A stretch of 64,000 nt of DNA from Planctomycetota bacterium (GTDB lineage: Bacteria > Planctomycetota > B15-G4 > JADJEK01). This document shows positions 1 through 47,677 of this stretch, piece after piece (the stretch's first letter is position 1; every line of letters starts with the position of its first letter). Made by a program: the position numbers and the translations under genes. The DNA is taken from the NCBI GenBank assembly GCA_044225365.1, contig JBGAIQ010000009.1, positions 96,462 through 160,461 of the forward strand, read 5' to 3'. The notes under the pieces are model-generated. The model saw only the letters and a list, made by a program, of their open reading frames with translations. It was not told the origin of the DNA and did no database searches.

Positions 1-941
1 ACGTACTCGAGCTTCGACTTCGAGGGCGTCGTGACCGTGGCCGTGCGAGCCGGCGTGGAGCGCAGTTCGAAGGCGCCCGCAGCCGTCGTGACGATCGTCG
101 CGCGCGGATCCGGATGTGCGATCGTGATCGGCGCATTGCGCGTCGACGCGATCCCCGCGAGTCGACCGTCGCTTCCGTACGTGAAGTCCATCGCGAAGCT
201 CGCGTCGGACGCCGCGATCCGGACGAGTCGCCCGTTCTCCACCGTGAGGCCATAGCCGAGATCGTCCGTGACCTCGACCCGCGCGCCCGTCGGCAGCGAC
301 TTCCATACCGCGCTCGTATCGGCCCCCTCGATTCGTACGCGACGCATCTCACCGTCGGTCGTCACGACCCCCGTCGAATGCAGCGCCGATCCGAGATTGC
401 GAACGGAGCACGCCTCGAACACCGCCCCCGCCCGAAGATCTTTCAATTCGAACTCGACGACGTGATCCTTGCGGCGAGCACGAGCGAGCGGCGCGCCTTC
501 GCGCGCCCGTTCGATCGTGAGCCACCAATCACCCTCGTTCTCCTCCGCGCGGCCACGGTACACGCCTTCACCGAAAGAGGGCTCGGCGACGAACTCGACG
601 AGGCGCCCATCGTCGGTGAGCAGTCGCGGCGACTCCCCCCATTCGAGGCGTTGACCGAACGAACGCGTCCATCCCGGTCCGAGTCCCTCGGGGTCGGGAG
701 CGTCGGCGGTCGACGTGTCGTTGTAGTAGAGGACGAAGGGAGTGCGCGGAAGCTGCGTGACGAAGATCATGCCCCCCGTCGCGGGTAGGAGGCAGATCCC
801 GGAGTCCTCGATTGGGTAAGCGACGTCGCTGCCGATCGGGAGCCCGACTCCGCGCGAAGCCGAGCCGAGGTGATCGGCGCCGGACGAGGCCGGAACCGTC
901 GAGCACCACAGTGCGAGTATGCAGGTAAGGAGTGACATCAT
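1..941 (-). CDS. Partial CDS (3' end beyond window edge): hypothetical secreted protein / possible lipoprotein immediately downstream of the RHS toxin. Candidate immunity or accessory protein.
   Basis: Manual reverse-complement translation from the ATG at ~941 gives MMSLLTCILALWCSTVPASSGADHLG..., a signal-peptide-like N-terminus, with no stop before position 1. It is absent from the ORF track because it is open at the window edge. It starts 12 nt after the RHS stop. Confidence 0.5.
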   Translation of the reverse strand, partial: MMSLLTCILALWCSTVPASSGADHLGSASRGVGLPIGSDVAYPIEDSGICLLPATGGMIFVTQLPRTPFVLYYNDTSTADAPDPEGLGPGWTRSFGQRLEWGESPRLLTDDGRLVEFVAEPSFGEGVYRGRAEENEGDWWLTIERAREGAPLARARRKDHVVEFELKDLRAGAVFEACSVRNLGSALHSTGVVTTDGEMRRVRIEGADTSAVWKSLPTGARVEVTDDLGYGLTVENGRLVRIAASDASFAMDFTYGSDGRLAGIASTRNAPITIAHPDPRATIVTTAAGAFELRSTPARTATVTTPSKSKLEY

Positions 942-952
942 GGCTCCTCCTC

Positions 953-3900
953 TCAGTGTCCTTGCTTCGTCCGAGTGTGTCGGCACTCGCAAGGGCTCTC
1001 GGCCATGTCGAGGAACCCCGCCAAACGGTCCGCATGTTCCTTGATGTCGTTCATTGCCTTCTGCATCGTCGGATGCTCGATGGATGTCGCAGGAATCGGT
1101 TTACCGTCTCGGCCGGGCGCTGTCGGTCCGGTCAAGGAATAACCATCTCCAATGACGGTGACCCGGGTCAGCTTTGGATCCGATGTATCCGGCACGTCGT
1201 GCGTCGGCTGACTCAGCATTCCATTGTGGACGACATCCGCCCACAGCATGATCGTGACGCTGCCGAACTGGTACTGATTCCAGATCTCGTTGATGATTCG
1301 CTTCCTCTGCAGTTCCCATTTCTCCTTCGCGTCGACATACGCCGCCATCGAATCATGCGTCATGAACGACTTGATTCCAGCGAGCGAGTTGAGCGCGTTT
1401 TGTAGGAAACGCTCCACGAAGGAGTACAAGAGCACGGCGTGGACCATTTCGTGGAAGTAGGCGGACTCCGTGATTCCTTTTCCAACCACTCTCAGCGTCT
1501 TATCAGGAGCCATGACGCTGGAATTCAGGGCTGCGATCTGCACCTTGATGCTGAAATCGGAATCTCCCGAGTGGGAGGTCCTCGCGTGATCCGTCTCGGC
1601 CGGATAGCACGGCGGATCCATCACGGGATTCACGTAGACGTACTTCTCGGAGTAGATGTCCACGCTGTCGAGCTCGGTGACGCCAAAGACCAGGCCTCCC
1701 AGCGCCTCCGAGAAGGCGACGCCAGCCAACTTCGGTCGCTGGATCTCACCGAGCACCCGACCGACCGTGCATAGGCCACTAGGATCGACGAAATCGACCG
1801 GATCGTCGCCGACCCGGCTGTATTCCTTCTGGAGCGAGCTGGCGCGAATCGGATCCGGCTCCACGAACCGGCAATCCTCCGGATCGTACATCCGAGCGCC
1901 GTTCCAGTAGATCCCGTGGTTCGCGTCCCAGCGCATGCCCTGGAACCGGTCGACGTTCCACGTCGCGCCGCTCGTTCCGAGCGAGCCCCCGAAGGGATAG
2001 TACTCGAACCCCGCGGTCGCGAGCGTCGACTCGTCGAGCGTGCGCACCACGCTGCCCGTGATCGGATCGGCGAGCACGACGTGATCGACGCCGGATCGCT
2101 CGGACCAGATCTTCTGATCGATGCCGGTACCGAAATCCTCCTCCTCGAGTACCCAGTTGTTGTAGGAAAGAACGGGCTCGCCGTTGGGATCGAGCGTGAA
2201 GTAACGAATCGTCGAGCCCGTCACGGCACCGAGGATCGAGCCGAACGGATCGCGATAGAACTGGGTGGTGACGGCGCCGGTCGTGAGGGTCGCGATGCGG
2301 CCCCAGGCATCGTAGGTGTAGGTGCGAGTCGAAGCGCCGTTCGATCGCGAGGTCACGCGGCCCGCTGCGTCGTACGCGTACGTCGTCGTTGCGCTACCCT
2401 TCTGTGCCGTGATCAGGCGACTCGCCTGGTCGTAGCCAAAGGTCGTCGTCACGCCGGACTGCGTGGAAGTCGCGATGCGGCCGGCGGCGTCGTAAGTCAG
2501 GCTGGAGGTATACGCATTCGGTCCGGTTCGCTTGCTCGACGCCAGCGCACCGAACGATGTGTAGGTGAACGTCTCGCTGTCGCCCGCCGCGTGATCGATT
2601 TGCGAGACGCGATCTTCGCCATTGTATTTGTAAACGCGGTGCACCAGCGTCGTGCTCGATCGCGCGGCCGAGTAGTCGTTCAGTCGACCGCATCCGTCGA
2701 ATGCGAATCTCTCGTCGACGAGGCCGCGGATCCTTCGAAGCACGATGCGACCGATCGAATCGTACGTAAAGCTCGTCATCGGTTCGGTGATGCTTCCCCG
2801 TACGAGGTCGATCGATGAGATTCGACTCATCGAATCGTAGGAATACGAGAATGCATCGCCGTTCGGAACGACTCGCGCGATGAGGCGCCCTGTCGAATCG
2901 TAGTAATACGAGAACACCTCCCCGAATCCATTGGAGAACGACGTGACCCGCCCCGACGCGTCGTAAGCGTACTGATACCAGGTCGTGCCTTCCTGGATCG
3001 CGGCGAGGCGATCGTGCGCGTCGTACGTGTAACTGCGCGTCGCACCACCGATGCTCGAGCTGGATTGCGTGAGCTTGCCCGAGGCGTCGTAGGCGAAGGA
3101 ATACGTGACACCACCGGGCTCGGTCTGACTCGTGAGTCGACCGTTCGCATCATGCGTGAGGGTGAACGTCTGCGTACCGTGGACGACCGTAGCGAGGTTG
3201 CCGAGCGCGTCGTAGGAATACGACCACGCGAGATCACCGCCGTTCTTCTTGTACGTGAGGCGGCCGAGGGAGTCGTACGCGTACGTCACGGCCGGCGCGC
3301 CGTCGGGGGTCGACGTGAGGGGCTGACCCGCGAGATTGTAGGTATACGAACACCCATACCCCGTCGGATGGACCATGCGCGAAAGTCGGCCGTTCACGTC
3401 GTACGAGTAGGTCGTCGTCAGCACGGTGCTCGTCGACTGGGCAACGGGGTATTTCTTCACGGATACGAGCCGACCGCCCGAATCGTAGGTCTGGTCGATC
3501 CGAATCTCGCTCGAGGTCCCCGGAGCGAGTTTCGATACGGTGAGTCGACCGACGACGTCGTAGGCGAAGGTCGCCACCAGCACGCCGTTCTGCCGGACTT
3601 CCGTGCAGCGCCCCGCCGCATCCCGCGTGTAGGTCGTGGTCACACCGCCGCAGGTCGTGGACACGAGATCCGTGTAGAGGAATTGCGACGTGCTCGGCAT
3701 GGACCCCGAGGCGGCGTGCGACGTCTCGAGCCCTGCGAGGTTGTAGGCGCGTTGCAGTACGACGGCGGGATCGGAGTCGTTCGCGAGGCCATCGCTGTTC
3801 GAATCGATCCAGGGGCCGGTCTCGGTGACGGGGCGGCCCAGCGCATCGCGAGCGACCACGGTCGTCCGACCTCCCGAATCCACCGCGCGCGTGAGTCGGT

Positions 3901-4978
3901 CGGCGGCATCGTAGTCGTAGGTCGCCGTGCCGAGACCGAAGTACGTGTGCGACGTCTCCTGGTTCCGCGCTCCGAACGCGACCGACTCCTGCGGAGTCAT
4001 CGCGCCATCGAAAGTGGTCGCCTGGCGATTCAGCGCGTCGAACTGCGCCGCCTCGAGCACCGACGTCTGGTTCGCGATCATGGTCTGAACGCCGGCGAGC
4101 GAGGCGGCGGGACCATGGCGCGAAACGACGTTGCCCGACGCGTCGTAGCGGTTGCCGATCCACGTGACATTGCTCGACGTCGTGCGGATTCCCTGCGCTT
4201 CGATCCGTCCGGCGGAGTCGTACGACGTGAATTCGCTGCCGAGCGCGGTCGAGACTCCCGGGCGCGTGACTTTGATCACGCGATGCTGCGAATCGTAGTC
4301 GAAGTACGTGACGAGACCGTTGGGATCGGTCTCCGAGATCTTGTCGTGCGTCGCGTTGTAGGACCGGAACGTGATCGCGCCGGCCTCATTGCGGATCTGG
4401 ACCAGGTCGCCGTTCGAGTCGTAAGTGAATTGGCGATATTGACCCGCGGTGATCATCGCCTGAACGTCGGTCTGCGTGAACGCGGGTCCCGCGCTCTGGA
4501 TCACGCGCCCCATCGAATCGAGCGTGTCGAGGGTGATGCCCCCGCGGAAATCGGTCGTCATCGTCCGATTGCCCGCGAGATACGCGAAGGTCCAGGTGTA
4601 CGTCTCGGTGCCATTCGTCGCGGTCCGTGACGCGAGGCGACCCATCGAATCGTAGGTGTACGACTCGGTCAGCGCCCCGCCCTGGCGACTGTGGCTCGTC
4701 ACTCGGTACTGCGCATCCCACGTCCAGTTCTCGATCTGCCCACCGGGATGCGTCGCCTGCTGCAGGAGCGAGTAGCCGCCGGAATACGTGTACGTGTAGT
4801 TGTGCGTCTGAGCGGCGAGTTCCGCCGGATTCGGCACCGGACCGTACACCGGTCCACGGTGCTGGGTCACGTTGCCGAAGGCGTCGTACTGGAAGTCCTC
4901 GTAGAGTGATTGGGCGCTGGCAATTCCCGCCAGCGACATGGCTGCGGCGAAGAGCGAGACGGGGAGACGGAGCGACAT
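953..4978 (-). CDS. RHS / YD-repeat polymorphic toxin with Sec signal peptide, RHS core (DPxGL) and a C-terminal HExxH (zincin-like) toxin domain
   Basis: 1341 aa. N-terminal signal MSLRLPVSLFAAAMSLAGIASAQS. Dozens of YD/YxYDxxGR repeats. RHS repeat-associated core ...RFQGMRWDANHGIYWNGARMYDPEDCRFVEPDPI...DPSGL. C-terminal ~290 aa contain HEMVH. The C-terminal coding region (~960-1820) is markedly lower in GC than the flanks. Confidence 0.9.
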   Translation of the reverse strand: MSLRLPVSLFAAAMSLAGIASAQSLYEDFQYDAFGNVTQHRGPVYGPVPNPAELAAQTHNYTYTYSGGYSLLQQATHPGGQIENWTWDAQYRVTSHSRQGGALTESYTYDSMGRLASRTATNGTETYTWTFAYLAGNRTMTTDFRGGITLDTLDSMGRVIQSAGPAFTQTDVQAMITAGQYRQFTYDSNGDLVQIRNEAGAITFRSYNATHDKISETDPNGLVTYFDYDSQHRVIKVTRPGVSTALGSEFTSYDSAGRIEAQGIRTTSSNVTWIGNRYDASGNVVSRHGPAASLAGVQTMIANQTSVLEAAQFDALNRQATTFDGAMTPQESVAFGARNQETSHTYFGLGTATYDYDAADRLTRAVDSGGRTTVVARDALGRPVTETGPWIDSNSDGLANDSDPAVVLQRAYNLAGLETSHAASGSMPSTSQFLYTDLVSTTCGGVTTTYTRDAAGRCTEVRQNGVLVATFAYDVVGRLTVSKLAPGTSSEIRIDQTYDSGGRLVSVKKYPVAQSTSTVLTTTYSYDVNGRLSRMVHPTGYGCSYTYNLAGQPLTSTPDGAPAVTYAYDSLGRLTYKKNGGDLAWSYSYDALGNLATVVHGTQTFTLTHDANGRLTSQTEPGGVTYSFAYDASGKLTQSSSSIGGATRSYTYDAHDRLAAIQEGTTWYQYAYDASGRVTSFSNGFGEVFSYYYDSTGRLIARVVPNGDAFSYSYDSMSRISSIDLVRGSITEPMTSFTYDSIGRIVLRRIRGLVDERFAFDGCGRLNDYSAARSSTTLVHRVYKYNGEDRVSQIDHAAGDSETFTYTSFGALASSKRTGPNAYTSSLTYDAAGRIATSTQSGVTTTFGYDQASRLITAQKGSATTTYAYDAAGRVTSRSNGASTRTYTYDAWGRIATLTTGAVTTQFYRDPFGSILGAVTGSTIRYFTLDPNGEPVLSYNNWVLEEEDFGTGIDQKIWSERSGVDHVVLADPITGSVVRTLDESTLATAGFEYYPFGGSLGTSGATWNVDRFQGMRWDANHGIYWNGARMYDPEDCRFVEPDPIRASSLQKEYSRVGDDPVDFVDPSGLCTVGRVLGEIQRPKLAGVAFSEALGGLVFGVTELDSVDIYSEKYVYVNPVMDPPCYPAETDHARTSHSGDSDFSIKVQIAALNSSVMAPDKTLRVVGKGITESAYFHEMVHAVLLYSFVERFLQNALNSLAGIKSFMTHDSMAAYVDAKEKWELQRKRIINEIWNQYQFGSVTIMLWADVVHNGMLSQPTHDVPDTSDPKLTRVTVIGDGYSLTGPTAPGRDGKPIPATSIEHPTMQKAMNDIKEHADRLAGFLDMAESPCECRHTRTKQGH

Positions 4979-5096: not shown

Positions 5097-8000
5097 TCAG
5101 GAGCGAAGAACGCGATCGGCCTCGCGCACGACGGCTGCGTTGAACAGATCGCTGGTCAGGAACGCCTCGCGCCGCTGGGCGTCCTCGATTCCCGTACTGC
5201 GCTCGAGCACGAGGTCGCGTGCCCGCACGAGGAACTCGCGAGCCTCGTCCTCACGATCGATCGCCTTCAGGCAGCGATAGTGGATGAACGACAGCTCGGC
5301 CTGGCGCTTCCTCGCGGCCTGGTGCGTCTCCAGGAACTTCATGCCCTTCTTGCTGACGGCGAGGGCGAACTTGGACTTGCCCTGCGCGAGGTAGGCGACG
5401 GCGAGCGCGGCGTAGGCGTAGGCCTCCTGTCGCGCAAGCTCGTACTTCTGCGCGATCGCCACGCCCGAGGCGGCATACGTCGCGGCGACGGCGGGGTCGC
5501 GCTCCGGATTCTGATTCGCGATGAAGAGGAGGGCGAGGGCGACGTGCGTGTACACCTCGAACGGCGCATCCGAGGTCATCTTGAACAGATCGAGCGCGCG
5601 TTCGAGGCGGGCCCTTGCTTCGGCATGGCGACGCGCTCGCATCGCGAGTTCGCCAGAGACGTACAGCGCGCGAGCCTTCAACGCCTGATCGGAGTTGGCC
5701 TCGGCGATCGTGAGCGCCGCGTCCGCGGACTTCTCGGCGCGTTCGAGGTCGCCGAGCTCGCGATAGGTCCTTGCGAGCTGAAAGAACGCGCGGCCCCGAC
5801 CGCGTTGATCCTCGAGTCGCTCGAAGAGCGCGAGGGCCTGCTTCTGCGTCTCGAGGGCGAGCTCGAGACGATCCGTCGCGAGATAGAGCTGGCCGAAGAT
5901 GAGGAAGCCGTAGGCGCGTCCCAGCTCGTCCCCCGCCGCAGCGGCGAGTTCGTCGGCACGCTTCAATTCGTCGTCATAATCGGTCTGACCGAGCGTCTCG
6001 AGCACGGCGGCCTCGACGCGGAGCGAGCGCGCCTCGAGCGCGAGATCACCCGCACGTCGCGCCGCCTCGCGCGAACGCTCGCAATGCTGCAGCGCCGCGA
6101 ACACGCGGCCGGTGGACGAGTCGTACGCAGCGAGTTCGACCTCGACCTGCGCGATGCGTCGATCGTCGTTGGCCGTGAGCGCTACGCGGGCGGCGGAGCG
6201 CAGCAATTCGCCCTGCCGCGCGCGCTGTCCCAGATGACCGTAGACCGAAGCCGCGCCGAGGAAGAGGGCCACGCGATCCGAGGCGACGATCGTGGCATCG
6301 TCGTCGGAAACCTGCGACAGGTGGTCGAGCGCCTTGTCGGCGAGCCGCTGCGCTCGCTCGTGGAGGTTGCGGTCCTCGCAGAAGTCCACGGCACCGATCA
6401 GATACCTGGCGGCGCGCGAGTGCGCCTCCGCGAAGGAGAAGTGGATGCCGGCTTCGTAGTTCGCGCGCGTCGCGGCGTGCGGGTCGGTGGACGACCGCGC
6501 GTGGATCTGCGCGACCGTCAGGTGATATTCGCGACGCAGGGCGGGATCGATCCCGAGGTACACCCGTTCACGCAGCAAGTGATGATCGAAGCGGTAGGCG
6601 TCGTCGAACGATCGAACGAGGTGATAGCGCTGGGTCAGTCGCGAGAGAACCTCGGAGGCCTTGAGGAGGTCGAGCCCGAGTCCCTCGATGACCGGCTCGG
6701 GTTTGAATCGCGCGCCGAACACCGACGCGAATTCGAGGAAGCGCTTCGCTTCGGCATCGATGTCCTCGAGCCTTCGCGCGAGCAGGTCGAGCACCGATTT
6801 CGGCAACGGCAGGCGCTTCAGCTCGGCGGGCTTGATCGAGCGCAGCTTGCCGCGCCGTTCCAGGTCGTCGATCAGCGCGAACAGGAAGCCGGGATTGCCT
6901 TCGCTCGCTTCGTGGAGGCGCTTGCCGAGAGATTTCAGGAGCGCCGGCGGAACGCCGACGTCCCGCAGCACGGAGCGGACGGCGGTGTCGTCGAGCCGCT
7001 CGAGCGTGACGTGGAGCGCTTCCTTCAGCTCGAACAGCTTCTTGAAGAACGGCGCCGACGGCGGCTCGCCCGGCATCGTCTCGGCGAGTGCGCTCTCGCG
7101 GGCCGTGAGCACGATGGCGATCGGGAACACCGCGAGCGTCGAGGCGAGTGCGAGCAAGGCGCGGAGCGAACCGCGATCGGCCCACTGGATCTCCTCGATC
7201 ACGAGGAAGATCGGCGAGCGCACCGACAGCGTGCGCAGGACCTCCGCGTACAGCGCGGGGACGGCTTCCGGCGGCAGTTGCTTCGCTGCCGAAGAACCGG
7301 CGAGCGCGCTCGCGCCCGGCGCATTCGTCCCGCCGGATGCGACGCCCGCGCCGCCTTCACCGAGAACGAGGGAAGCGAAAGCGTCGGCGAAGACGCGGCG
7401 CTCGGGCAGGTTCTCGCGCAACTTCTCGGCGAGCACGCGCGTGCGATCGGCGCGCGGGACCGCGTCGACGCCGAGGGCCATCAGCAGCGCCTCGTTCAGT
7501 GCGTAGTACGGCGTCGCTGCCGCTTGATCGAGGAAGCGCGAGACGAGGACCTGCGCGCCGAGCGGCTCGATCTCCTCGGACTCGAGTGCGCTATCGATGA
7601 GGCGCGATTTGCCGATCCCGGTCTCGCCGGTGACGACGACGACCCGTCCGCTCCGCGCGACGGCGGCCGTGCGCAATGCGTCGACGAGCGCGCCGCGCGC
7701 GGCGTCCCGTCCGTAGACCCGAGTCGCACGACGCACGCGCAATCGTCGCCGCGAACGCGACAGGTGCGCCTCCATGGCTTCGCCCTCGACGTAGGCCTTC
7801 CACCAGTCCGATTCCTCGCGTTCCTCGAGGATGCGAAGGAGGCGCGATGCCGGCTGGAGACGCCGCGCCGGGTCTTTCTCGAGCGCCTGCGCGACCACCC
7901 GCTCGAAGAAGTACGAAACGTCGGGCGCGAACGCCGAGACGGGACGCGGGACGAGCCTCGTCTGATTCGCCATCGTCGACGGCAGATCGGGACCGTGGAA

Positions 8001-8762
8001 CGGATTGAATCCCGTGAGGCACTCGTAGGCGGTGACGCCGAGCGAGTAGAGGTCGGTCGCCTTGCCGATCGGCCCGCTCGCGATCTGCTCGGGCGACGAA
8101 TACGCGGCGCTGCCGACGAACGTGCCGGGCAGCGAGATCTCCGTCCCCGGCTCCACGAGCCGCGAGAGTCCGAGATCGACGATGTGGAGATGGTCCTCGG
8201 CGTCGAGGAACAGGTTCCCGGGTTTGATGTCCCGGTGCAGGATGTCGTGCTCGTGGAGCGCCGCGAGCGCCGCGACGCCCTGTCGATAGACGTGGAACGC
8301 TCGGCTCTCGCTCATCCTCCCGTCGTCGTCGAGGACCTTCGAGAGCGTGCGCCCTCGCAGATACTCCATGACGATGAAGTGGAGCGTCTCGCCGCCCACC
8401 TTCTCGCTGCCGACGTCGTAGGTCGCGACCACGTTCTCGTGCTTGATCGCGAGGCCGACCCCGGCTTCGCGTTTGAATCGCCGGAGGATGTCCTCGTCGG
8501 CCGCGAGGTGCGGATGCAGGATCTTGAGCGCGACCTCGACGCCCACGCGCAGACCCTTCTTCGCCTTCACCACCTCGGCGAGGAAGACCGTTCCCATGCC
8601 GCCCGCGCCAAGGCGCTTGACGACGCGGTAGTTCTTGATGGTCTTGCCCTCGAGATCGTTCACGCACGTACTTTCGTTGTCAGGATCGAAGCTGGCGATT
8701 ATAGTCCGTGGCAGCGTAGGGCAAGCGTAAGCGATTGCGAGCGCGCTTTTAACGCACAGCAA
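5097..8762 (-). CDS. Ser/Thr protein kinase of STAND type: N-terminal Hanks kinase domain + AAA/P-loop NTPase + C-terminal TPR-like repeats. True start possibly the GTG at ~8663.
   Basis: GAGGMGTVFLAEV (G-loop), VALK, HRDIKPGNLFLD, DLGLS, SPEQ. P-loop VVVTGETGIGKS. Long alpha-helical TPR-like C-terminus. The ORF-track start is a TTG; the first ~33 codons lie in an AT-richer stretch that looks like promoter DNA. Confidence 0.85.
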   Translation of the reverse strand: MLCVKSALAIAYACPTLPRTIIASFDPDNESTCVNDLEGKTIKNYRVVKRLGAGGMGTVFLAEVVKAKKGLRVGVEVALKILHPHLAADEDILRRFKREAGVGLAIKHENVVATYDVGSEKVGGETLHFIVMEYLRGRTLSKVLDDDGRMSESRAFHVYRQGVAALAALHEHDILHRDIKPGNLFLDAEDHLHIVDLGLSRLVEPGTEISLPGTFVGSAAYSSPEQIASGPIGKATDLYSLGVTAYECLTGFNPFHGPDLPSTMANQTRLVPRPVSAFAPDVSYFFERVVAQALEKDPARRLQPASRLLRILEEREESDWWKAYVEGEAMEAHLSRSRRRLRVRRATRVYGRDAARGALVDALRTAAVARSGRVVVVTGETGIGKSRLIDSALESEEIEPLGAQVLVSRFLDQAAATPYYALNEALLMALGVDAVPRADRTRVLAEKLRENLPERRVFADAFASLVLGEGGAGVASGGTNAPGASALAGSSAAKQLPPEAVPALYAEVLRTLSVRSPIFLVIEEIQWADRGSLRALLALASTLAVFPIAIVLTARESALAETMPGEPPSAPFFKKLFELKEALHVTLERLDDTAVRSVLRDVGVPPALLKSLGKRLHEASEGNPGFLFALIDDLERRGKLRSIKPAELKRLPLPKSVLDLLARRLEDIDAEAKRFLEFASVFGARFKPEPVIEGLGLDLLKASEVLSRLTQRYHLVRSFDDAYRFDHHLLRERVYLGIDPALRREYHLTVAQIHARSSTDPHAATRANYEAGIHFSFAEAHSRAARYLIGAVDFCEDRNLHERAQRLADKALDHLSQVSDDDATIVASDRVALFLGAASVYGHLGQRARQGELLRSAARVALTANDDRRIAQVEVELAAYDSSTGRVFAALQHCERSREAARRAGDLALEARSLRVEAAVLETLGQTDYDDELKRADELAAAAGDELGRAYGFLIFGQLYLATDRLELALETQKQALALFERLEDQRGRGRAFFQLARTYRELGDLERAEKSADAALTIAEANSDQALKARALYVSGELAMRARRHAEARARLERALDLFKMTSDAPFEVYTHVALALLFIANQNPERDPAVAATYAASGVAIAQKYELARQEAYAYAALAVAYLAQGKSKFALAVSKKGMKFLETHQAARKRQAELSFIHYRCLKAIDREDEAREFLVRARDLVLERSTGIEDAQRREAFLTSDLFNAAVVREADRVLRS

Positions 8763-12208: not shown

Positions 12209-13402
12209 TCAGCGCGCGCCCGTCGGACCCGATTTCGAAGCGCTCCGCACCGAGTTCGCCGGCGACTCCGAGCCCGACGCCGGCGGCCAAGGATACTCCA
12301 TCCCGCGGGCGGTCCTCTCGGCGACGTCCTTTCCGAGATCGCGCTCGACGAGATGGAGCGCCGCGTCGATCCCTGCGGAAACGCCCGCCGCGGTCACCAC
12401 CTTGCCATGGTCGACGTAGCGAACGCCCCTCACCACGTCCACCTTCGGGAAGTCGCGGGCGAGTCCGCCAAGAGCCGAGTGATGCGTCGTCGCCGACTTG
12501 CCGTCGAGCAGGCCGGTCTTCGCGAGCACGAAGGCGCCGGTGCACACGGAGAGGATCTGCGTCGAGGGCGTCGCGGCGGCCGCGAACCACTTCATGAAAG
12601 CCGTGTCTTCGAGGAGTCGTGGCGTATCGCCACCCGGCACGACGATCACGTCGGGAACGGGGCAGTTCTCGATCGTGTACGTCGGGACGATCGTCGCGTC
12701 GATTCCGTTTGGATGCACGGGAGTCGACGTCGAAGCCACGTAGAAGACCTGGTAGCACGGACCCTCGATGCGCCGGATCGCCGCTCCGAAGACTTCGGAC
12801 GGACCCGCGAAGTCGAGCATCTCGACGCCCTCGTGGATCACGATCGCCACCTTCGACGCATGACTCACGATCGAATCCATGGCGCGCTCGAAGCGCGGGT
12901 CGGCGCGCAGCTTCTTCAGGTCGGGATCATGACGGATGAGTCCCTCATTGCCGAGGCCCGCTGCGATCGCGCGCGAGAGACTCTCGAACGCGACGTCCGA
13001 TCGATCGAGCATCGCCTGCGCGCAGGCGATGTCGTACAGACTGAGGACGTGGACTTCGTGTTGCGATGGAGTCGCCGCATTCTCGGTGAGTTTCGCCGCG
13101 CGTTCGTGCGCGGGGAGCGCGTCGGTGAACCGCCCGAGTGAATGCAATGCGAACCCCAGGCGATGCCAGGCGACGGCATCGTCGTCGTGCGACGCGACGA
13201 GTCGCTGATAGGCCTCGGCAGCGGCCACCCAGTCGCCGGCATCGAAGGCCTGCGACGCTCGTTGCGCGAGATTCTCGTCCGCGGGTTTCGCCGCCTCACC
13301 GACGCCCGTCGGCGCGCTCCCTTGCGCATGGGCAGTACCGACGGCAAGCATGAGAATCGCGGGAATCAGCGCAAATCGGGTCCGTTCGAAATCCATGACC
13401 AT
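12209..13402 (-). CDS. Secreted TPR-repeat + DJ-1/PfpI (class I glutamine amidotransferase-like) fusion protein
   Basis: 397 aa. Signal MVMDFERTRFALIPAILMLAVGTAHAQ. TPR-like helical region. DJ-1/PfpI core with the nucleophile elbow ...ILSVCTGAFVLAKTGLLDGKSATTHH. The ORF-track entry 12209..14020 is trimmed. Confidence 0.75.
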   Translation of the reverse strand: MVMDFERTRFALIPAILMLAVGTAHAQGSAPTGVGEAAKPADENLAQRASQAFDAGDWVAAAEAYQRLVASHDDDAVAWHRLGFALHSLGRFTDALPAHERAAKLTENAATPSQHEVHVLSLYDIACAQAMLDRSDVAFESLSRAIAAGLGNEGLIRHDPDLKKLRADPRFERAMDSIVSHASKVAIVIHEGVEMLDFAGPSEVFGAAIRRIEGPCYQVFYVASTSTPVHPNGIDATIVPTYTIENCPVPDVIVVPGGDTPRLLEDTAFMKWFAAAATPSTQILSVCTGAFVLAKTGLLDGKSATTHHSALGGLARDFPKVDVVRGVRYVDHGKVVTAAGVSAGIDAALHLVERDLGKDVAERTARGMEYPWPPASGSESPANSVRSASKSGPTGAR

Positions 13403-13696
13403 CCTCTCGTATTCGAGCTCGCTTCGTCTTTGGGCGGCAGGGCGCGCTCGGCCAGCTCGATGACCGGCGCGCCTTGAATGGAACCGAGGCCAACGCCGGA
13501 TGCGTCCCTGCTGGGACCAACCGTTCTCTCCTTGTCGCGAGGGACGGCCGACGGGTCGATCTCGGGCGATTTCTCCCAAGTGCGCAGAATTTGGCGGAGC
13601 GACGGCGCCCGACTCCACCGTTTTGCCCACTGCTCGCGCCGATTCGTGCGGCACCTCGTTCGCTCTTCGAGCGAGCGAGCTTTCCGGAGGTGTTCC

Positions 13697-14509
13697 ATGC
13701 GTGTGATCGACATCATGACGAAGAACTGCGTCACCATCGAGCCGATGGCGTCGCTGAAGCAGGCGATGGACGAGATGGAACGGCACGACGTGCGACATCT
13801 CGTCGTCGTCGACGCGGATGGACGGCTCGAGGGCATCGTCTCCGATCGCGATCTGCTCGCGGCGACGGGATGGGTCGATGATCCGACCGATTCCCGGCGT
13901 GTCATGGATGTGATGCATCGCGACGTGAAGACGACGAATCGCCAGGCGGAGGTCGTCGCGATCGCGACCGAGATGATCGTCGATGCGATCGGCTGCTTCC
14001 CGGTCGTCGAGGACGACCACGTCGTCGGCATCGTCACGGAGACCGATCTCGTCGGGGCGTTCCTGAAAGCGCTGGAGCAGGGCATCCTCCCCCGCGACGC
14101 GGATCCGTTGATCGCGACGAAGATGACGCGCGATCCGCTCTGCATCTCACCCTCGGATACCTTGCTGGAAGCGCGACTCATCCTGCGAGCGCGCAAGATC
14201 CGCCATCTCCCAGTGATCGACGGGGATCGCGTGCTCGGCGTGCTGTCCGACCGCGATACGCGGCGCGTCGAAGGACGCCATCAACTTCGCGAGCCGGTGC
14301 TCGCGGAAGCGATCAAGCGTCACGTCGTCATCATCGCTCCCGATCAACGCCTCTCGACCGCCGCCGTGCTGATGTTGGATCGCAAGATCAGCTGCCTGCC
14401 CGTGGTCACGCCGGACACGAACAAGCTCGTCGGCATCCTGACCCTCGCCGATCTGCTCGACCATTGCGCCGCGACGCTCTGGCAACCGACGAGATTCGTG
14501 ACGGCGTAA
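13697..14509 (+). CDS. Standalone CBS-domain protein (two CBS pairs)
   Basis: 270 aa from MRVIDIMTKNCVTIEPMASLKQAMDEMERHDVRHLVVVD. Four CBS-like repeats (GIVSDRDLL, GIVTETDLV, GVLSDRDTRR, GILTLADLL). No fused catalytic domain. Confidence 0.8.
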   Translation: MRVIDIMTKNCVTIEPMASLKQAMDEMERHDVRHLVVVDADGRLEGIVSDRDLLAATGWVDDPTDSRRVMDVMHRDVKTTNRQAEVVAIATEMIVDAIGCFPVVEDDHVVGIVTETDLVGAFLKALEQGILPRDADPLIATKMTRDPLCISPSDTLLEARLILRARKIRHLPVIDGDRVLGVLSDRDTRRVEGRHQLREPVLAEAIKRHVVIIAPDQRLSTAAVLMLDRKISCLPVVTPDTNKLVGILTLADLLDHCAATLWQPTRFVTA

Positions 14510-14511
14510 AC

Positions 14512-14536
14512 GCGCGGCCGCGCACCCGGTTTTTTT
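14512..14536 (+). terminator. Rho-independent terminator of the CBS gene
   Basis: Self-complementary gcgcggccgcgc, 3 nt after the TAA stop, followed by acccgg and a T7 tract. Confidence 0.55.
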
Positions 14537-14596
14537 GAACGCAACGGCGGGCGTAGGGGCGCACGGATTGTGCGCGCGAGTCTCACCCCGCCGACC

Positions 14597-14965
14597 CTAG
14601 AACGGCCGGTGGCGCGATTCGACGGCGTAGAGCTTCGAGTAGGCCTCGAGGAGTTGCCGCGAGCGCTCGTACGATTCCGATTCGTCGGCGGCGTCCGCCT
14701 CGGGCTTCAGCTTCGCGTCGTTGCGGAAGATCTCGAGCAAGGCCTCGTAACGCTCATGAGCGGCGAGCATCGAGCTGATGTTCGTGGCCTGATCGTGGCG
14801 GGCGACGTCGTCGAGGACGTTGATCGCTTCCTCGGCGGCGATATCGAGCGCCTCTTCCAGGCGATTCCAGCGCTTGTGACCTTCGGTCTGCGTATCGATC
14901 CGCTTCCGAGTCTCCTCGACTCGCGCAGCCACTTCGGAAGCGATCGCCTTCGGGTCGAACATCAC
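14597..14965 (-). CDS. Hypothetical helical protein downstream of rbfA (sits where truB would be expected)
   Basis: 122 aa (MMFDPKAIASEVAARVEETRKRIDTQTEGHKRWNRLEEALDIAAEEAINVLDD...). 4-nt overlap with the rbfA stop. No recognisable domain. Confidence 0.5.
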   Translation of the reverse strand: MMFDPKAIASEVAARVEETRKRIDTQTEGHKRWNRLEEALDIAAEEAINVLDDVARHDQATNISSMLAAHERYEALLEIFRNDAKLKPEADAADESESYERSRQLLEAYSKLYAVESRHRPF

Positions 14966-38951: not shown

Positions 38952-40896
38952 TCAGTGCGGGTGGGAGACCTGGGAATCGTCGCTCGGACCGCGCGCCAGC
39001 TTCTCGAGCCGCAGGCGATAGGTACGAAGGATCTGCTCGCGTGACAGCAGCCCAATCAATTTCCAGCGATCGCCATCGGGAACCACGATCGGTACCTCGT
39101 CGCACTCCTCCTCGGAGAGCTTCTGGAGGGCCGTGAGCAGCGGGTCGTCCGGGCGGACGATCGGGTAGGCATCGCTCATCATCTCCGAGACCAGGACGAG
39201 TCGGTGGACGCTGGTGTCGAGCAAGAGGTCGCGAACGTCCTCGATCGTGACGATGCCGAGCACGAATCCGGCTTCGTCGAGCACCGGAAAGCACTGCTGC
39301 CGCGTCCGTCGCAGCATCTGGACCATGTCGGCGATCGTCTGACCCGGCTTCAGTGTCGCAACCTTCGAATGTTGAGCCGTGGCGTTCTCGACGGTGAGTG
39401 GCGCGAGCACGTCGACGCTGTACGAACCGAGGTGTGCCGGCGACTCGAAGCGCGATCCAACCTGGGCCGTGTAGACCGACGCGCGACCGGTGAACACGTA
39501 GGCGAGCGCGCAGACCAGCACGAGCGGCAGGAGCAGTCCGTACGAGCCGGTGATCTCGCACACCATGACGAGTCCCGCGATCGGCACCTTGGTGATACCG
39601 GCGAACACACCGCTCATGCCGACCAGGACGTAGGCCCCCGGATCGGTGACGACGTCGGGGAACAGGAGATGCGCGAGCTGTCCGTAGCCCGCACCCACCA
39701 TCGCGCCGATGTAGAACGCAGGGCCGAACACGCCTTCACCCCCGCGCGTCGCGAAGGTGATGCCCGTCGCGAGCGATTTGGCGAGCGCGAGTCCGAGCAG
39801 GAAGAGCACGCCGCGCATTCCGGGGCCCGCGAGGCTGCCATCGATCGCTTGCTGCACCCAGCCGTAGCCGGTGCCCCACACCTCTGGAACCGCGAGAACG
39901 AGCACGCCGAGGAGGAGCCCGCCGATCGCCGGCCGAGCGAACGACGGCAGCGTGAAGCGCGCGAAGATCTTGTCGAAGACGCCCACGCGCAGCGTTTTCA
40001 GCGCCATGACGTAGACGATGCCGGCGAGCGCGCAAACGAGTCCGAAGACAGCGTAGATCGGCAGCTCGAGCGGCGACATCAGTTTGAACGCCGTCGCATG
40101 GAAGACCGGTGTCCAGCCGTAGACACAACCGAAGGTCGCGTACGCCGAGAGCGACCCGATGATCGCGGGTACGAACGCCGTGTACTCGAACTCCGGATTG
40201 CGATACGGCGACTCGATGGCGAAGATCGCGCCCGAGAGCGGTGCGCGGAAGATCGCCGCGAACCCGGCCGCCGCGCCGACGAGTAGCGAGATCCGCCGAT
40301 CCGCAGAGCGCAGCTTGAACGTATCGGCGATCTTCGAACCGATCGCCGCTCCGAGTCCGACCGCCGGCCCTTCGCGACCGACCGACCCACCGGAGCCGAT
40401 GACGACGAGCGAACTGAGCGCTCGCAGGACTGGATCCTTCAATCCGAATTTCCCGCGTCGCTGATGGAACGCATCGAGCACGCCGTCGGTTCCGCCGCGG
40501 GTGGGATCGGGCCGTGCGATCGTGAAGAGCAGGCCCGCGAGGAGTCCACCGAGGCCGGGCACCAGGACGAGCATCCAGCGAATCGGTTCCGCGACCGCGC
40601 TGCCCGTGGGCTCGGGCGGATCGCCGCCGGGCACCGGCGGATGGAACGACGCGAGGCGATGCGTGAAGAACGCGACCGCGAGCCGCAGCGCCTCGAAGAA
40701 CACGATCGACACCGCGCCCGCGAGGACACCGATCAGCACCGCGAGGAAGAACCACTTCGCCGCGTGGCGGATGTCGGGCAGCGACGTGAACGAGGCCGGA
40801 CGCGACGCGTCCCGGCCGACAGGATGGAACGGCGCGATACGAGTCGTCGCGCTCGCCGCCGGATCGGGCCGTTTCAGATCAGATTGAATCTCTTGC
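38952..40896 (-). CDS. ClC-family chloride channel/transporter with C-terminal CBS pair
   Basis: GSGGSVGREGP and GAIFAIESPY (ClC selectivity-filter motifs). ~10 TM segments. C-terminal CBS domains (VLDEAGFVLGIVTIEDV, VVPDGDRWKLIGLLSREQIL). Start uncertain: candidate GTG ~40896 overlaps the upstream gene; the ORF-track start at 41192 is spurious. Confidence 0.8.
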
Positions 40897-43333
40897 GTAG
40901 GATCCACTCGGCGGAGAGAAGGGCGAGGAACAGGAGCAACGTGCTCCAAGACGACCACAGTTCGCGGCGCCGTGGCTCGCCGGTCAAGCGCTCGCGCACG
41001 TCGCCTTCGATCGTCGCGAGTGCGTCCTTGATCTCGTGGACCCCAAAGTAGCGTCCGCGAGTCGCCGCTGCGACCTGTTCGAGTGCATCTCGCGCAAGTA
41101 CCGGATTCTCCCACTCGCGCTTCGGCACTTCGACGGTGAACGACTTCGGCGACAGATGTCCCGCGTCGCGACCGGCGGCATCCTCGAGCCATGCCTGGTA
41201 CGAACCCGGGAGCGCAAGTCGGATCGTACCCTGGAAACGACCCTCGGCGGGATCGACGTTCGTGAGTTCGAGTTGCGTGACCACACCTCGCGGATCGGCC
41301 AGGTGCGCGACGTACTTCGCGTCCGTGAGCGGACCGAAGTCGACGTTGCGGATGCGCGCGTTCAATCGGATCGGCTCATGGATGTCGTAGACCGACTTGT
41401 CGGTCGTGAGCTCGAAGCGCTTGTTGGTGCGGCGCAACTTGTTGAGCGCCACATAGCGAACGACGGCTCGCCAGAACCGTTCCGGATACCGGTTCCCGTA
41501 GTACTTGCGCCACAGCCACGTCGAGTCGAACCCGACGAACATCGTGCGCCCCGCCGGATAGAACGACGAAGCGAGCAGGACGTGCTTGCCGAAGGAGTTG
41601 CCGTTCTCCGGATGCCGGAGCATGACCTCGGCGCCGCCCTTCGCCTTGCGCGCCGCGAAGTACCACTCCTGCGGGGGAAGGCCGACAGCCGGGTCCTCCC
41701 ACAACTTGCGGTTCATCGCGAGATCCTTCTCGAGCCGCACCGGCTCCGGCGGATCGAGCGGGTTCTCGAGCATCGGGCGAAACGGCTTCTTCGCCGAATC
41801 GAGGCGCGCCCGCTGGTCCTCGGCGTCGTTACCGACGACGACCGGAAGGAGATCCTCGAGCGGCGTTCCGATGTAGGAGACGGGATCGTCGAGTTCGCCC
41901 GCGAGGAAAACCAAGCCGCCGCCGAGTTCGACGAACTGGCGGAGGTTCTTCAAGGCGTCGTCCGCCGCCTGCGTCGACGTCGGCACGATGAGGTACGGGT
42001 TCACGTCGCCCAGGATCACCACGTCGTACGTGAGCAGCGCTTCCTTGGTCGGGGGGAACGCCGTGAGCGCGGGGACGTTGTCGGACGACTCCTGGATGAA
42101 GTCCTTGTCCGCGTCGAGCAACAGGCACTGCACCTTGAAGTTCTTCGAGCGCAGCAGGATGTTCATCAGGAAACGGTATTCCCAGCGAGCGTAGCCCTCG
42201 ACGTAGAGGACCTTCACCTGCTCGGGATCGACGCGGAGATGGTGGTTGCGGACGTTGTCGTCCTGGAACTGCTCGCCCTGGAGCGGCGCCACCTGGATCT
42301 CGAGATCGAACTCCCCTTCGCGTTCCGGGCGCCAGTAGAGGGTCTCGAGTTGCTCGCGCCCGCTCTGCTGCGCGAGCGTGATCTCCTTGCTCGACAGGAC
42401 TTCGCCGCTCTCGCGCGACTTCAGCACGAGGCTCGTCGTGCGGCCTTCGTAGCCCTTGCTCGAGATCGTGACGTCGAACGCGACGTCGTCGTTCACGAGC
42501 GCGACGTCGGGTGCGCGCACGGCCTGGATCGCGATGTTGCGCGGTTCGTTCGGGTCGCCCACGCCGATGCAGTGGACTCGCACGCCGTCGAGCGACGCCT
42601 GACTCGCGGCTTGCGCGAGATCGAGCCCAGCGTTCGATCGTCCGTCGGAGATGACGATCATCTCTTGCACGCGATCGCCACGATTCTCGATGTCGGTCAA
42701 CGCATCGGCGATCGCCGACCCGAGCCGCGTGGAGTTGGACGATGCCGACCAATCGTCGAGCGAATCGAGGCTGCGCAATTCGTCGCCGAACGCCATGAGC
42801 CGCACGTCGTTCTTGACCTTCAAGGCGTCGAGCAGCGTGGACTGATTCTTCAGGATCGCCTTCACCAGATCGACACGCGGCGTCGTCGCGAGCGCGTCCT
42901 TCGAAGGCAGCTTGGCGAGGTCGGTGAGGGCGTCCGCGGCGTCCTTGTCGTTGTACGAGTCGGCCCGTGTCATCGATGCGCTCGCGTCGAACAGGATCGG
43001 CAAGACCGATTTCTCGATCTCGACCTGCTGCGTCTCGAGCACCGGACGGAATAGAACGACGAACAGAACCGCGAACGCGAGCGCGCGCAGACCGGCGAGC
43101 AGACCGCGCTGGCGCGCAGTCAGTGGCGCGCGTTCCTTTCGGTAGGCGTACACCGAGGCCGCGATCACTCCCGGGACGATCAACAGCGCGATGATCCAGC
43201 CGGCGGGCGCCTCGAGGAACTTGAAGGTCGTGATGTCGTGCGAAACGTTCGGCAACACGGAGTTCGGTGCGTTGGAAGACGTACCCTGCGGAATCGCAGC
43301 GAGCCAGAGTGCGACCAGGCGATCCTGAATCAC
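40874..43333 (-). CDS. BatB-like membrane protein: N-terminal double-TM + vWA domain + long C-terminal region
   Basis: ~819 aa from a GTG overlapping the upstream stop (GTGA). TM FKFLEAPAGWIIALLIVPGVIAASVYAY / LAGLRALAFAVLFVVLF. vWA MIDAS motif ILFDASASM. C-terminal TM near the end. Confidence 0.7.
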   Translation of the reverse strand: MIQDRLVALWLAAIPQGTSSNAPNSVLPNVSHDITTFKFLEAPAGWIIALLIVPGVIAASVYAYRKERAPLTARQRGLLAGLRALAFAVLFVVLFRPVLETQQVEIEKSVLPILFDASASMTRADSYNDKDAADALTDLAKLPSKDALATTPRVDLVKAILKNQSTLLDALKVKNDVRLMAFGDELRSLDSLDDWSASSNSTRLGSAIADALTDIENRGDRVQEMIVISDGRSNAGLDLAQAASQASLDGVRVHCIGVGDPNEPRNIAIQAVRAPDVALVNDDVAFDVTISSKGYEGRTTSLVLKSRESGEVLSSKEITLAQQSGREQLETLYWRPEREGEFDLEIQVAPLQGEQFQDDNVRNHHLRVDPEQVKVLYVEGYARWEYRFLMNILLRSKNFKVQCLLLDADKDFIQESSDNVPALTAFPPTKEALLTYDVVILGDVNPYLIVPTSTQAADDALKNLRQFVELGGGLVFLAGELDDPVSYIGTPLEDLLPVVVGNDAEDQRARLDSAKKPFRPMLENPLDPPEPVRLEKDLAMNRKLWEDPAVGLPPQEWYFAARKAKGGAEVMLRHPENGNSFGKHVLLASSFYPAGRTMFVGFDSTWLWRKYYGNRYPERFWRAVVRYVALNKLRRTNKRFELTTDKSVYDIHEPIRLNARIRNVDFGPLTDAKYVAHLADPRGVVTQLELTNVDPAEGRFQGTIRLALPGSYQAWLEDAAGRDAGHLSPKSFTVEVPKREWENPVLARDALEQVAAATRGRYFGVHEIKDALATIEGDVRERLTGEPRRRELWSSWSTLLLFLALLSAEWILRKRFNLI

Positions 43334-45648: not shown

Positions 45649-46562
45649 CGCCGCGAACCTCGCCGTTCGCGCAGCGCGAGGTACGAAGTGAGTGCGACGT
45701 CGAGCGGCGTGTCGGTGAGGAGCACGCGGAAGTCGACTCCGTTGTTGAGACAGCCCTTCTTCAACTTGGCCTGATGCGCGTTGAAGACCTCAAGGTACGC
45801 GGCGCGCAGGGCCTGAGGATCGGCGATCAGGTCGCCCATCCCCTCGAGGCCCTCGAACTTCATCATGCGGTCGAACGCGAAGTCGACTTCGTCACGATCG
45901 AGCACCTGGAAGACCATGACGTCTTGCCGCTTGGTCTTGAGGGCGCGGATCCCCGCGAGCACTTTCTCGGGCGGCGCGAAGAAGTCCGAGATGACGGCGA
46001 CGATCGATCGCGGCGGGAGTCGCGTAGCGAGTTCACGCAGTGCGAGCCCAGGGTCGGTCTTCTTCACGAGCTTCACGCGCTCGATCGCGTCCGTGATCTT
46101 GAGCAGGTGCGAGGGCCGCGTCGCCGCGGGAACCCATTTGTCGACGTCCTCGCTCGTGAGCGCGAGCGCGGCGGCATCGCGGTGATCGAGGACGAGGAAC
46201 GACAAGGTCGCCGCGACGAATGCGCCGTAACGGAACTTGCTGACCCGATCGACGCCCGCGTAGCTCATGGACTCCGAGCAGTCGAGGACGATCGACAGCG
46301 TGAGGTTCGTCTCTTCCTCGTAGCGCTTGATGTAGTAGCGATCGGATCGTCCGAAGATCCGCCAGTCGAGATGGCGCAGGTCGTCGCCGGGCACGTATTC
46401 GCGATGCTCCGCGAACTCGACGGAGGCCCCGCGATGCGGGCTCTTGTGCATCCCGGCCATGAATCCTTCGACGGCCTGGCGCGCCTTCAGTTCGAGGCGC
46501 CCCAGCTTGTCGAGGACCTTAGGATCCAACCACTGGCGGTAGTCGTGTGTCGCTGAGGACAT
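45645..46562 (-). CDS. DUF58 (vWA-like) protein, MoxR partner
   Basis: 305 aa. LDPKVLDKLGRLELKARQAVEGFMAGMHKSPHRGASVEFAEHREYVPGDDLRHLDWR is the canonical DUF58 N-terminus. Confidence 0.85.
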   Translation of the reverse strand: MSSATHDYRQWLDPKVLDKLGRLELKARQAVEGFMAGMHKSPHRGASVEFAEHREYVPGDDLRHLDWRIFGRSDRYYIKRYEEETNLTLSIVLDCSESMSYAGVDRVSKFRYGAFVAATLSFLVLDHRDAAALALTSEDVDKWVPAATRPSHLLKITDAIERVKLVKKTDPGLALRELATRLPPRSIVAVISDFFAPPEKVLAGIRALKTKRQDVMVFQVLDRDEVDFAFDRMMKFEGLEGMGDLIADPQALRAAYLEVFNAHQAKLKKGCLNNGVDFRVLLTDTPLDVALTSYLALRERRGSRR

Positions 46563-47562: not shown

Positions 47563-47677
47563 TGCGAAACTCCAGGTACGGCCGTGATTCCGCGGGACGT
47601 GAGGCCCCGCAGATCCAACCATCTAGGATACGATCGGCAAACGAGAGGCGAGAGACGAAATCGTTCGTGAGATCTCG

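Follow-up and report, generated by a model that had tools for sequence, protein, structure and literature searches.

An unclassified HExxH domain at the C-terminus of a predicted Sec-exported RHS protein from a Planctomycetota bacterium, and its secreted YD-repeat partner

The DNA analyzed here is a stretch of 64,000 nucleotides (nt) from contig JBGAIQ010000009.1 of a Planctomycetota bacterium (positions 96,462 to 160,461), hereafter the window. Near its start, on the minus strand, lies a gene for an RHS protein of 1341 amino acids (aa) whose C-terminal domain, hereafter the tail, contains an HExxH motif and is the subject of this work; the gene that follows it encodes a secreted YD-repeat protein, hereafter the partner. 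The main features of the locus are the following.

953-4978, minus strand: RHS gene, 1341 aa, consisting of a signal peptide, a YD/RHS shell, the Rhs-associated core and the HExxH tail (open reading frame and family matches)
4913-4978, minus strand: predicted Sec signal peptide, aa 1-22, MSLRLPVSLFAAAMSLAGIASA and then Q (by inspection: Arg4, hydrophobic core, A-S-A)
1772-2002, minus strand: Rhs-associated core (aspartyl autoprotease plug), aa 993-1069 (the full TIGR03696 model, positions 1-76 of 76, is matched at E 6.1e-15)
956-1771, minus strand: candidate C-terminal cargo domain (the tail), aa 1070-1341, 272 aa, 30.0 kDa, isoelectric point 5.9, of an unclassified family; it follows DPSGL and is the lowest-GC segment of the window
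1-941, minus strand: partner gene for a secreted YD protein, truncated at the window edge (at least 313 aa); it begins 11 nt past the RHS stop codon, behind a GAGGAGGAG ribosome-binding site

The product of the RHS gene, which is 100% identical to the NCBI protein P0008 in a search with the full-length RHS protein, belongs clearly to the RHS encapsulation family. Pfam RHS_repeat is matched over 25 stretches (E 6.9e-74) and TEN_YD-shell is matched as well, whereas the NCBIfam scan yielded TIGR01643 (E 2.1e-54) and RHS_core; the shell thus contains multiple RHS/YD repeats. The Rhs-associated core ends in a DPxGL motif, its terminus being DPIRA-x18-DPSGL, with DPSGL at aa 1065-1069. In the Rhs and TcC autoproteases, two DPxGL-type motifs are located about 17 residues apart, and the second contains the catalytic Asp (PMC8636562). 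The presence of the motif suggests that the tail is released by autocleavage after DPSGL. The sequence-only reading of this DNA had assigned about 290 aa (953-1820) to the tail. The position after the core is retained, with the extent reduced to 272 aa (956-1771); the earlier span also covered the stop codon and ~16 codons at the end of the core, and was otherwise right.

Few relatives of the tail were found. An exhaustive phmmer search, with the tail as a single-sequence query against 1.84 billion cluster representatives, returned seven matches, two of them genuine and both RHS C-termini: P0001, a 1332-aa RHS protein with a tail 39% identical to that of the window, and P0003, the C-terminal piece of an RHS protein interrupted by an in-frame TAG. 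The other matches were rejected: P0005 is a repetitive surface protein, and P0002, P0004, P0006 and P0007 are repeat-derived junk matching NQYQFGSVTIMLWADVVH. This segment (tail residues 163-196, window ~1184-1285) attracts spurious phmmer matches to E 1e-24 from proteins built of NQFGTVNLVVWADLCH units, which could be mistaken for homologues. The full-length RHS search added P0009, a 1328-aa RHS protein of the same clade, and hhalign confirmed the homology of its tail (probability 96.8%, E 2.7e-10). The tail family currently consists of four known members (the window protein, P0001, P0003 and P0009), all of them ends of one RHS clade, that is, about four tail sequences in collections of ~15 billion proteins. 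Because the exhaustive single-sequence search missed P0009, the family is probably larger than four. In the Logan contig L002, the RHS gene is represented by open reading frames (ORFs) of 608 and 735 aa, separated by a single in-frame TAG at 2383-2385 within a YD repeat, which could mean that the gene is a pseudogene, that the contig contains a sequencing error or that the codon is read through.

Pattern scans of GTDB representative genomes and JGI metagenome contigs with the tail and N-terminal alignments produced no further relatives; these are weak negatives because P0009, which is known from JGI samples, was missed too. A word-index homology search was empty, whether the query was the tail by itself or a three-sequence alignment, even though the database contains the identical full-length P0008, so that this emptiness reflects a blind spot of the tool and not absence. 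The Rfam and tRNA scans gave no match. Four RHS tails that contain HExxH (P0023, P0037, P0083 and P0119) were considered as possible relatives but look unrelated by eye.

The tail and its homologues match no Pfam, NCBIfam or PHROG family, even at E<=10, apart from an irrelevant match to Acb2_Tad1 (E 0.2). The sequence search of the PDB with the tail was empty, and the best match in the profile search, the HExxH site of FtsH, was non-significant (E 2.5). There is accordingly no significant match to a known peptidase family in Pfam, NCBIfam, PHROGs or the PDB profile search, in agreement with the sequence-only reading, in which the domain could not be assigned to any named family. The tail plausibly represents a new metallohydrolase cargo family. 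The following conserved residues were mapped.

1769-1771, minus strand: Cys1070, the first residue past the predicted autocleavage site, invariant (alignment, 4/4)
1586-1615, minus strand: PPCYP...TDH block, aa 1122-1131, with Pro-Cys-x-Pro and one Asp invariant (four-way alignment)
1439-1453, minus strand: HEMVH, aa 1176-1180 (tail 107-111), HExxH invariant in 4/4 (four-way alignment), near the start of helix 102-130 in the AlphaFold model
1355-1357, minus strand: His1208 (tail 139), invariant, candidate third metal ligand 27 residues past the second His of HExxH (alignment)
1226-1228, minus strand: His1251 (tail 182), invariant, candidate alternative ligand or catalytic residue (alignment)
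983-991, minus strand: Cys-Glu-Cys, aa 1330-1332, both Cys invariant, as CEC or CKC (alignment)

The motif reads HEMVH, HEDAH, HENGH and HENGH in the four tails, with the H, E and H invariant at a tail identity quoted as 24-39% among the four homologues; 0.024 occurrences of HExxH are expected by chance from the composition of the tail. Only 23 of the 272 tail positions are invariant in the four-way alignment, including, in tail numbering, Cys1, Pro-Cys-x-Pro 54-57, Asp61, His107-Glu108-x-x-His111, Leu130, Gly132, Ser135, His139, Trp152, His182 and Cys261-x-Cys263. Conservation of HExxH among homologues, on which the peptidase assignment in the sequence-only reading depended, therefore holds throughout the family, and because its three defining residues are among the few invariant ones, the motif is, judging from this alignment, under selection. 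The third ligand proposed previously, the Glu of SFVERF, fared differently: it is replaced by Q, K and R in the homologues, and the gluzincin reading therefore fails. In gluzincins, the third ligand is located at the start of the helix that follows the HExxH helix. The AlphaFold model of the tail built from four sequences, which is weak overall, contains predicted helices 102-130 and 141-185, a helix-loop-helix around HExxH with a predicted local distance difference test (pLDDT) score of 70-80, and His139, at the start of the second helix, would occupy the place of the gluzincin third ligand in this model.

All four Cys of the window tail are invariant in the family and are located at the two ends of the tail; they may tie the termini together after export, through disulfides or a Cys-based metal site. 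Among 54 RHS relatives, Cys directly follows DPxGL in five, four of which belong to the tail family. As a neo-N-terminal residue, Cys1070 could engage in disulfide, metal, acylation or nucleophile chemistry.

The sequence-only reading proposed that the RHS protein carries a Sec signal and that no PAAR, VgrG or type VI secretion system (T6SS) gene is located nearby; both observations were borne out. The N-terminus (MSLRLPVSLFAAAMSLAGIASA/QSLYED, starting with MSLR) has the n-h-c layout and an A-x-A site, and a hydrophobic leader precedes the conserved mature start Q[SQ][LI]YE..YDA.G...GPVYGP.P.P.ELA in all four clade members. Pfam detected neither PAAR/prePAAR nor DUF6531 in the RHS protein, the latter being present in about four fifths of the other RHS matches, and no T6SS, PAAR, VgrG, Hcp or Eag gene was found among the ~45 genes scanned across the 64-kb window. 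The protein is not a T6SS-type Rhs. Its best conserved part between orthologues is aa 23-100 (4679-4912, minus strand), with 69% identity compared to 54% overall and the invariant block GPVYGP.P.P.ELA; these N-terminal ~100 residues may form an interface for the partner or for export or anchoring machinery.

The partner has a leader-like N-terminus of its own and is kept downstream of the RHS gene in three of the four loci, with homologues of 370 aa in L001 (40% identity, E 4e-48) and 472 aa in L002. It is absent from the P0009 loci, where proteins with CarboxypepD_reg repeats flank the RHS gene, a 782-aa CarboxypepD_reg protein following it in L003-6. The partner matches Pfam DUF6531 weakly (E 0.0014), RHS_repeat is matched in its orthologues, and a profile of the three partners is colinear with residues 71-320 of a canonical 2152-aa DUF6531-RHS protein (41 bits). 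From these matches, the partner resembles the beginning of an RHS shell at its N-terminus (the end of DUF6531 and the first YD turns), encoded as a separate secreted protein. The gaps between the RHS gene and the next gene are 11, 16, 5 and 52 nt in the four loci, with no small ORF in between; a small ORF of the immunity type fits in none of them, and the gene in the position of a cognate downstream immunity gene in the window is the one for the secreted YD protein. An antisense ORF within 932-1774 (plus strand) was considered as an immunity gene and, judged from the ORF list, discounted as a likely high-GC shadow ORF.

The tail appears to have been inherited together with the shell. P0001 aligns colinearly with the window protein over the whole length, signal peptide to final residues, and the identities of shell and tail in the six pairs of loci are as follows.

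Window and L001: shell 54%, tail 39%
Window and L002: shell 36%, tail 30%
Window and L003: shell 37%, tail 27%
L001 and L002: shell 35%, tail 30%
L001 and L003: shell 34%, tail 23%
L002 and L003: shell 41%, tail 25%

Across the six pairs, the tail diverges somewhat faster than the shell, yet in step with it. The same tail family occurs in all four members of the shell clade (a sample of four), no second core end, second copy of the tail or orphan cassette is present in the 64-kb window, and neither phmmer nor tblastn placed the tail on any other scaffold or on a plasmid or phage. These results point to vertical inheritance of the tail with the shell and no recent lateral swap, although older swapping may have occurred, given that only four members are known. 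The locus differs from a typical polymorphic toxin system because there is no variation of the tail within the clade and no immunity gene.

The GC dip that drew attention to the tail in the sequence-only reading was reproduced on recomputation, although against a background of about 66% and not ~70%. The mean GC content is 58.0% in the tail, 63.8% in the RHS core and 65.8% in the whole window, and 200-nt windows over 901-1700 range from 54 to 59%. The tail is the lowest-GC 819-nt stretch of the 64 kb (0.24% of the sliding windows are as low, all of them overlapping the tail), and each of 325 coding windows drawn from 25 other genes has a higher GC content (minimum 0.606). By codon position, the GC content of the tail is 0.57 at the first (GC1), the same as in the remainder of the RHS gene; 0.42 at the second (GC2) vs 0.53 in the core; and 0.75 at the third (GC3) vs 0.82 in the core, which is at about the 5th percentile of the other genes. 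Because much of the drop falls in GC2, the low GC of the tail largely reflects amino-acid composition. The other three loci show no dip of GC3 between core and tail (tail/core 0.94/0.96 in L001, 0.82/0.81 in L002 and 0.78/0.74 in L003). The interpretation of the dip as a laterally swapped island, and of the tail as a swapped module with the hallmark of polymorphic toxins, is thus not supported: shell and tail identities change in step, GC3 does not dip elsewhere, and one tail is present throughout the clade, with neither immunity gene nor orphan cassettes. The sequence-only reading had also raised the question of whether homologues of the tail end other RHS or contact-dependent inhibition (CDI) scaffolds; all relatives found are ends of the same RHS clade.

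Several neighbouring genes deserve mention. In two of the four lineages, genes for large CarboxypepD_reg-rich proteins (L002:6107-9661; L004:7549-8358 and 12410-14758) adjoin the RHS gene or the pair that it forms with the partner gene; they may represent a further conserved neighbour. Upstream of the RHS gene by 118 nt, on the same strand, lies a gene for a 1221-aa Ser/Thr kinase-AAA_16-TPR protein (5097-8762, minus strand) that is not adjacent to RHS in the other loci. The window genes are housekeeping or unrelated, encoding, for example, CysRS, RbfA, IF-2, NusA, ThiG, a CLC channel, enolase and SodC. A cluster of BatA, VWA, DUF58 and MoxR-type ATPase genes at 40874-47622 (minus strand) resembles an operon of the aerotolerance (Bat-like) type and has no relation to the RHS locus; two DUF4175 proteins are encoded at 27.7-33 kb.

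Zincin-like toxins borne by RHS proteins have been described previously, namely, Tox-MPTase1-5, HopH1-like and ALF-MPTase (Zhang et al. 2012, PMC3482391), and an Rhs effector of Salmonella Dublin contains an M91 domain (PMC13556075). The Tox-MPTase and HopH1 toxins are typically RHS-borne, often with type II secretion system (T2SS) or Sec leaders, and have no listed immunity (PMC3482391). The protein described here resembles the RHS-borne metallopeptidase toxins in that its HExxH domain is located at the extreme C-terminus, after the DPxGL core, and in the lack of an immunity gene, and it shares the Sec-type leader with many of them. None of the four tails has a Pfam match at E<=10 other than the irrelevant one to Acb2_Tad1, whereas the Tox-MPTase1-5, HopH1 and ALF-MPTase families are assumed to have Pfam models. 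The tail also differs from RHS-borne metallopeptidase toxins in its four invariant Cys, the extra His, the lack of a conserved acidic third ligand, and in being monomorphic within the shell clade. The Wss1-like metallopeptidase is much smaller than the 272-aa tail. Tox-MPTases are similar in size to this peptidase (PMC3482391).

T6SS Rhs effectors, such as Rhs1 of Photorhabdus laumondii (PMC8636562), share with the protein of the window a YD shell ~1050 aa long, a C-terminal aspartyl-protease plug in which two DPxGL-type motifs are spaced by ~17-18 residues, and a cargo located past the cleavage site. Unlike these effectors, the main protein has a Sec leader in place of PAAR/prePAAR and lacks the DUF6531 seal, and neither T6SS, VgrG or Eag genes in the window nor an immunity gene accompany it; the cargo is 30 kDa here vs 9-20 kDa in T6SS Rhs effectors (PMC8636562). 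The locus is similar to TcB-TcC of the Tc toxins, an RHS cocoon without immunity, in having two adjacent genes with RHS-type sequence, and in the Tc toxins the second protein extends and closes the barrel (PMC8636562). Unlike TcB-TcC, the gene order is reversed, with the protein resembling the shell start encoded downstream, both proteins have leaders of their own, and one of the four loci lacks the partner. The cargo of Tc toxins is ~30 kDa, like the tail. Neither the window nor the other loci showed a beta-propeller or TcA-like gene. WapA of Bacillus subtilis consists of a signal peptide, YD repeats and a C-terminal toxin, with no T6SS adaptor; its polymorphic tails are nucleases, and the cognate immunity gene, WapI, lies downstream. 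The RHS protein of the window has the same succession of N-terminal signal peptide, YD repeats and C-terminal domain, but, unlike WapA, a conserved HExxH tail without an immunity gene.

We interpret 956-1771 (minus strand), with moderate confidence, as encoding a 30-kDa metal-dependent hydrolase that is the cargo of a Sec-exported RHS shell, is co-inherited with this shell and is accompanied by the partner. As its leader sequence suggests, the RHS protein would be exported by Sec. The ~1045-aa YD/RHS region, in which the domains are recognizable, would fold as in other members of the family into a shell closed by the Rhs-associated core, and the aspartyl autoprotease, the motif of which is present, would cut after DPSGL (1069) to yield a tail starting with Cys1070. 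The tail would then be, most likely, a zinc-dependent hydrolase, and probably a zincin-like peptidase, as suggested by its conserved residues; Glu1177 would serve as the general base, and a His, rather than the previously proposed Glu, as the third ligand. Once outside the cytoplasm, the four Cys would staple the termini through disulfides or a metal site. The lack of an immunity gene suggests a target outside the cytoplasm of the producer or in other organisms. The partner would probably cooperate with the shell by sealing or extending it; alternatively, it might be a periplasmic inhibitor.

Several observations weigh against this interpretation. The signal peptide was recognized by eye. The four-way alignment contains no invariant acidic residue downstream of HExxH. 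AlphaFold models of the tail built from three- and four-sequence alignments reached a pLDDT of only 42 and 55, respectively, with the N-terminal 100 residues below 50, and fold searches with these low-confidence models gave only noise. The modestly lowered GC3 of the window tail, at the 5th percentile, also runs counter to it. Finally, the 30-kDa tail has a volume of ~36,000 Å3, which exceeds the cavity of ~28,000 Å3 in a T6SS Rhs shell of similar length (PMC8636562), and full encapsulation is therefore not assured. The same disparity is a quantitative hint that the partner seals or extends the shell. A bolder version of the hydrolase-cargo interpretation, which we regard as speculative and improbable, is a two-gene Sec-exported RHS system in which a monomorphic, DUF6531-less cocoon holds a His-liganded cargo of the zincin type with a staple of four Cys, and the partner supplies the shell start in trans, resulting in a minimal Tc-like split cocoon. 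Its targets would be non-self (prey, eukaryotes or extracellular substrates) and not siblings, because there is no immunity gene.

Among the alternatives, the tail might not be a peptidase toxin at all but another metal-dependent enzyme, or a binding domain stabilized by a structural metal or by disulfides, possibly located outside the shell as in teneurins. No peptidase family or fold is detectably similar to the tail, structural sites could be formed by the four Cys and the additional His that are invariant in it, 30 kDa is large for encapsulation, and the combination of a monomorphic tail and no immunity gene would be compatible with such a role. However, the Glu of HExxH is required by catalysis and unneeded for a structural site, and its invariance favours catalysis over a purely structural metal site; furthermore, the tail is in the cargo position, after an intact autoprotease core, and RHS-borne HExxH toxins are already an established class. 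We consider this alternative unlikely.

The tail could also be an interbacterial toxin acting in the periplasm or envelope, with the secreted YD partner as its periplasmic immunity protein or inhibitor. In three of the four loci, the partner gene occupies the position of an immunity gene and is translationally coupled; the partner has a leader peptide, and its divergence (40, 30 and 26%) is closer to that of the tail (39, 30 and 30%) than to that of the shell. Such a role nonetheless appears quite improbable for a protein of 370-472 aa that shares homology with the N-terminal beginning of RHS shells, in contrast to known immunity families, and is absent from the P0009 loci, and we know of no precedent. 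It is very unlikely that the tail is a polymorphic-toxin cassette acquired recently by lateral swapping and joined by recombination to a resident RHS shell: C-terminal swapping is the rule in polymorphic toxins (PMC3482391), and the tail is the lowest-GC 819 nt of the window, has a low GC3 and diverges somewhat faster than the shell, but all four clade members share the tail family with identity scaling with that of the shell, much of the dip is in GC2, GC3 does not dip in L001, L002 and L003, and there are no orphan tails or duplicated core ends in the window, no immunity gene and no occurrence of the tail on another scaffold, plasmid or phage.

These findings leave the picture of polymorphic toxins unchanged, because RHS cocoons with HExxH toxins are an established class. 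The HExxH cargo family at this locus is rare and unclassified and occurs on an RHS clade of the Sec type that has an unusual secreted partner; it is a candidate new metallohydrolase family without a detectable link to any known peptidase. With one tail across the clade and no immunity, the protein looks more like a dedicated secreted effector than a weapon of sibling competition. If the partner indeed completes the cocoon in trans, the pair would amount to a simple bacterial counterpart of the TcB/TcC split.

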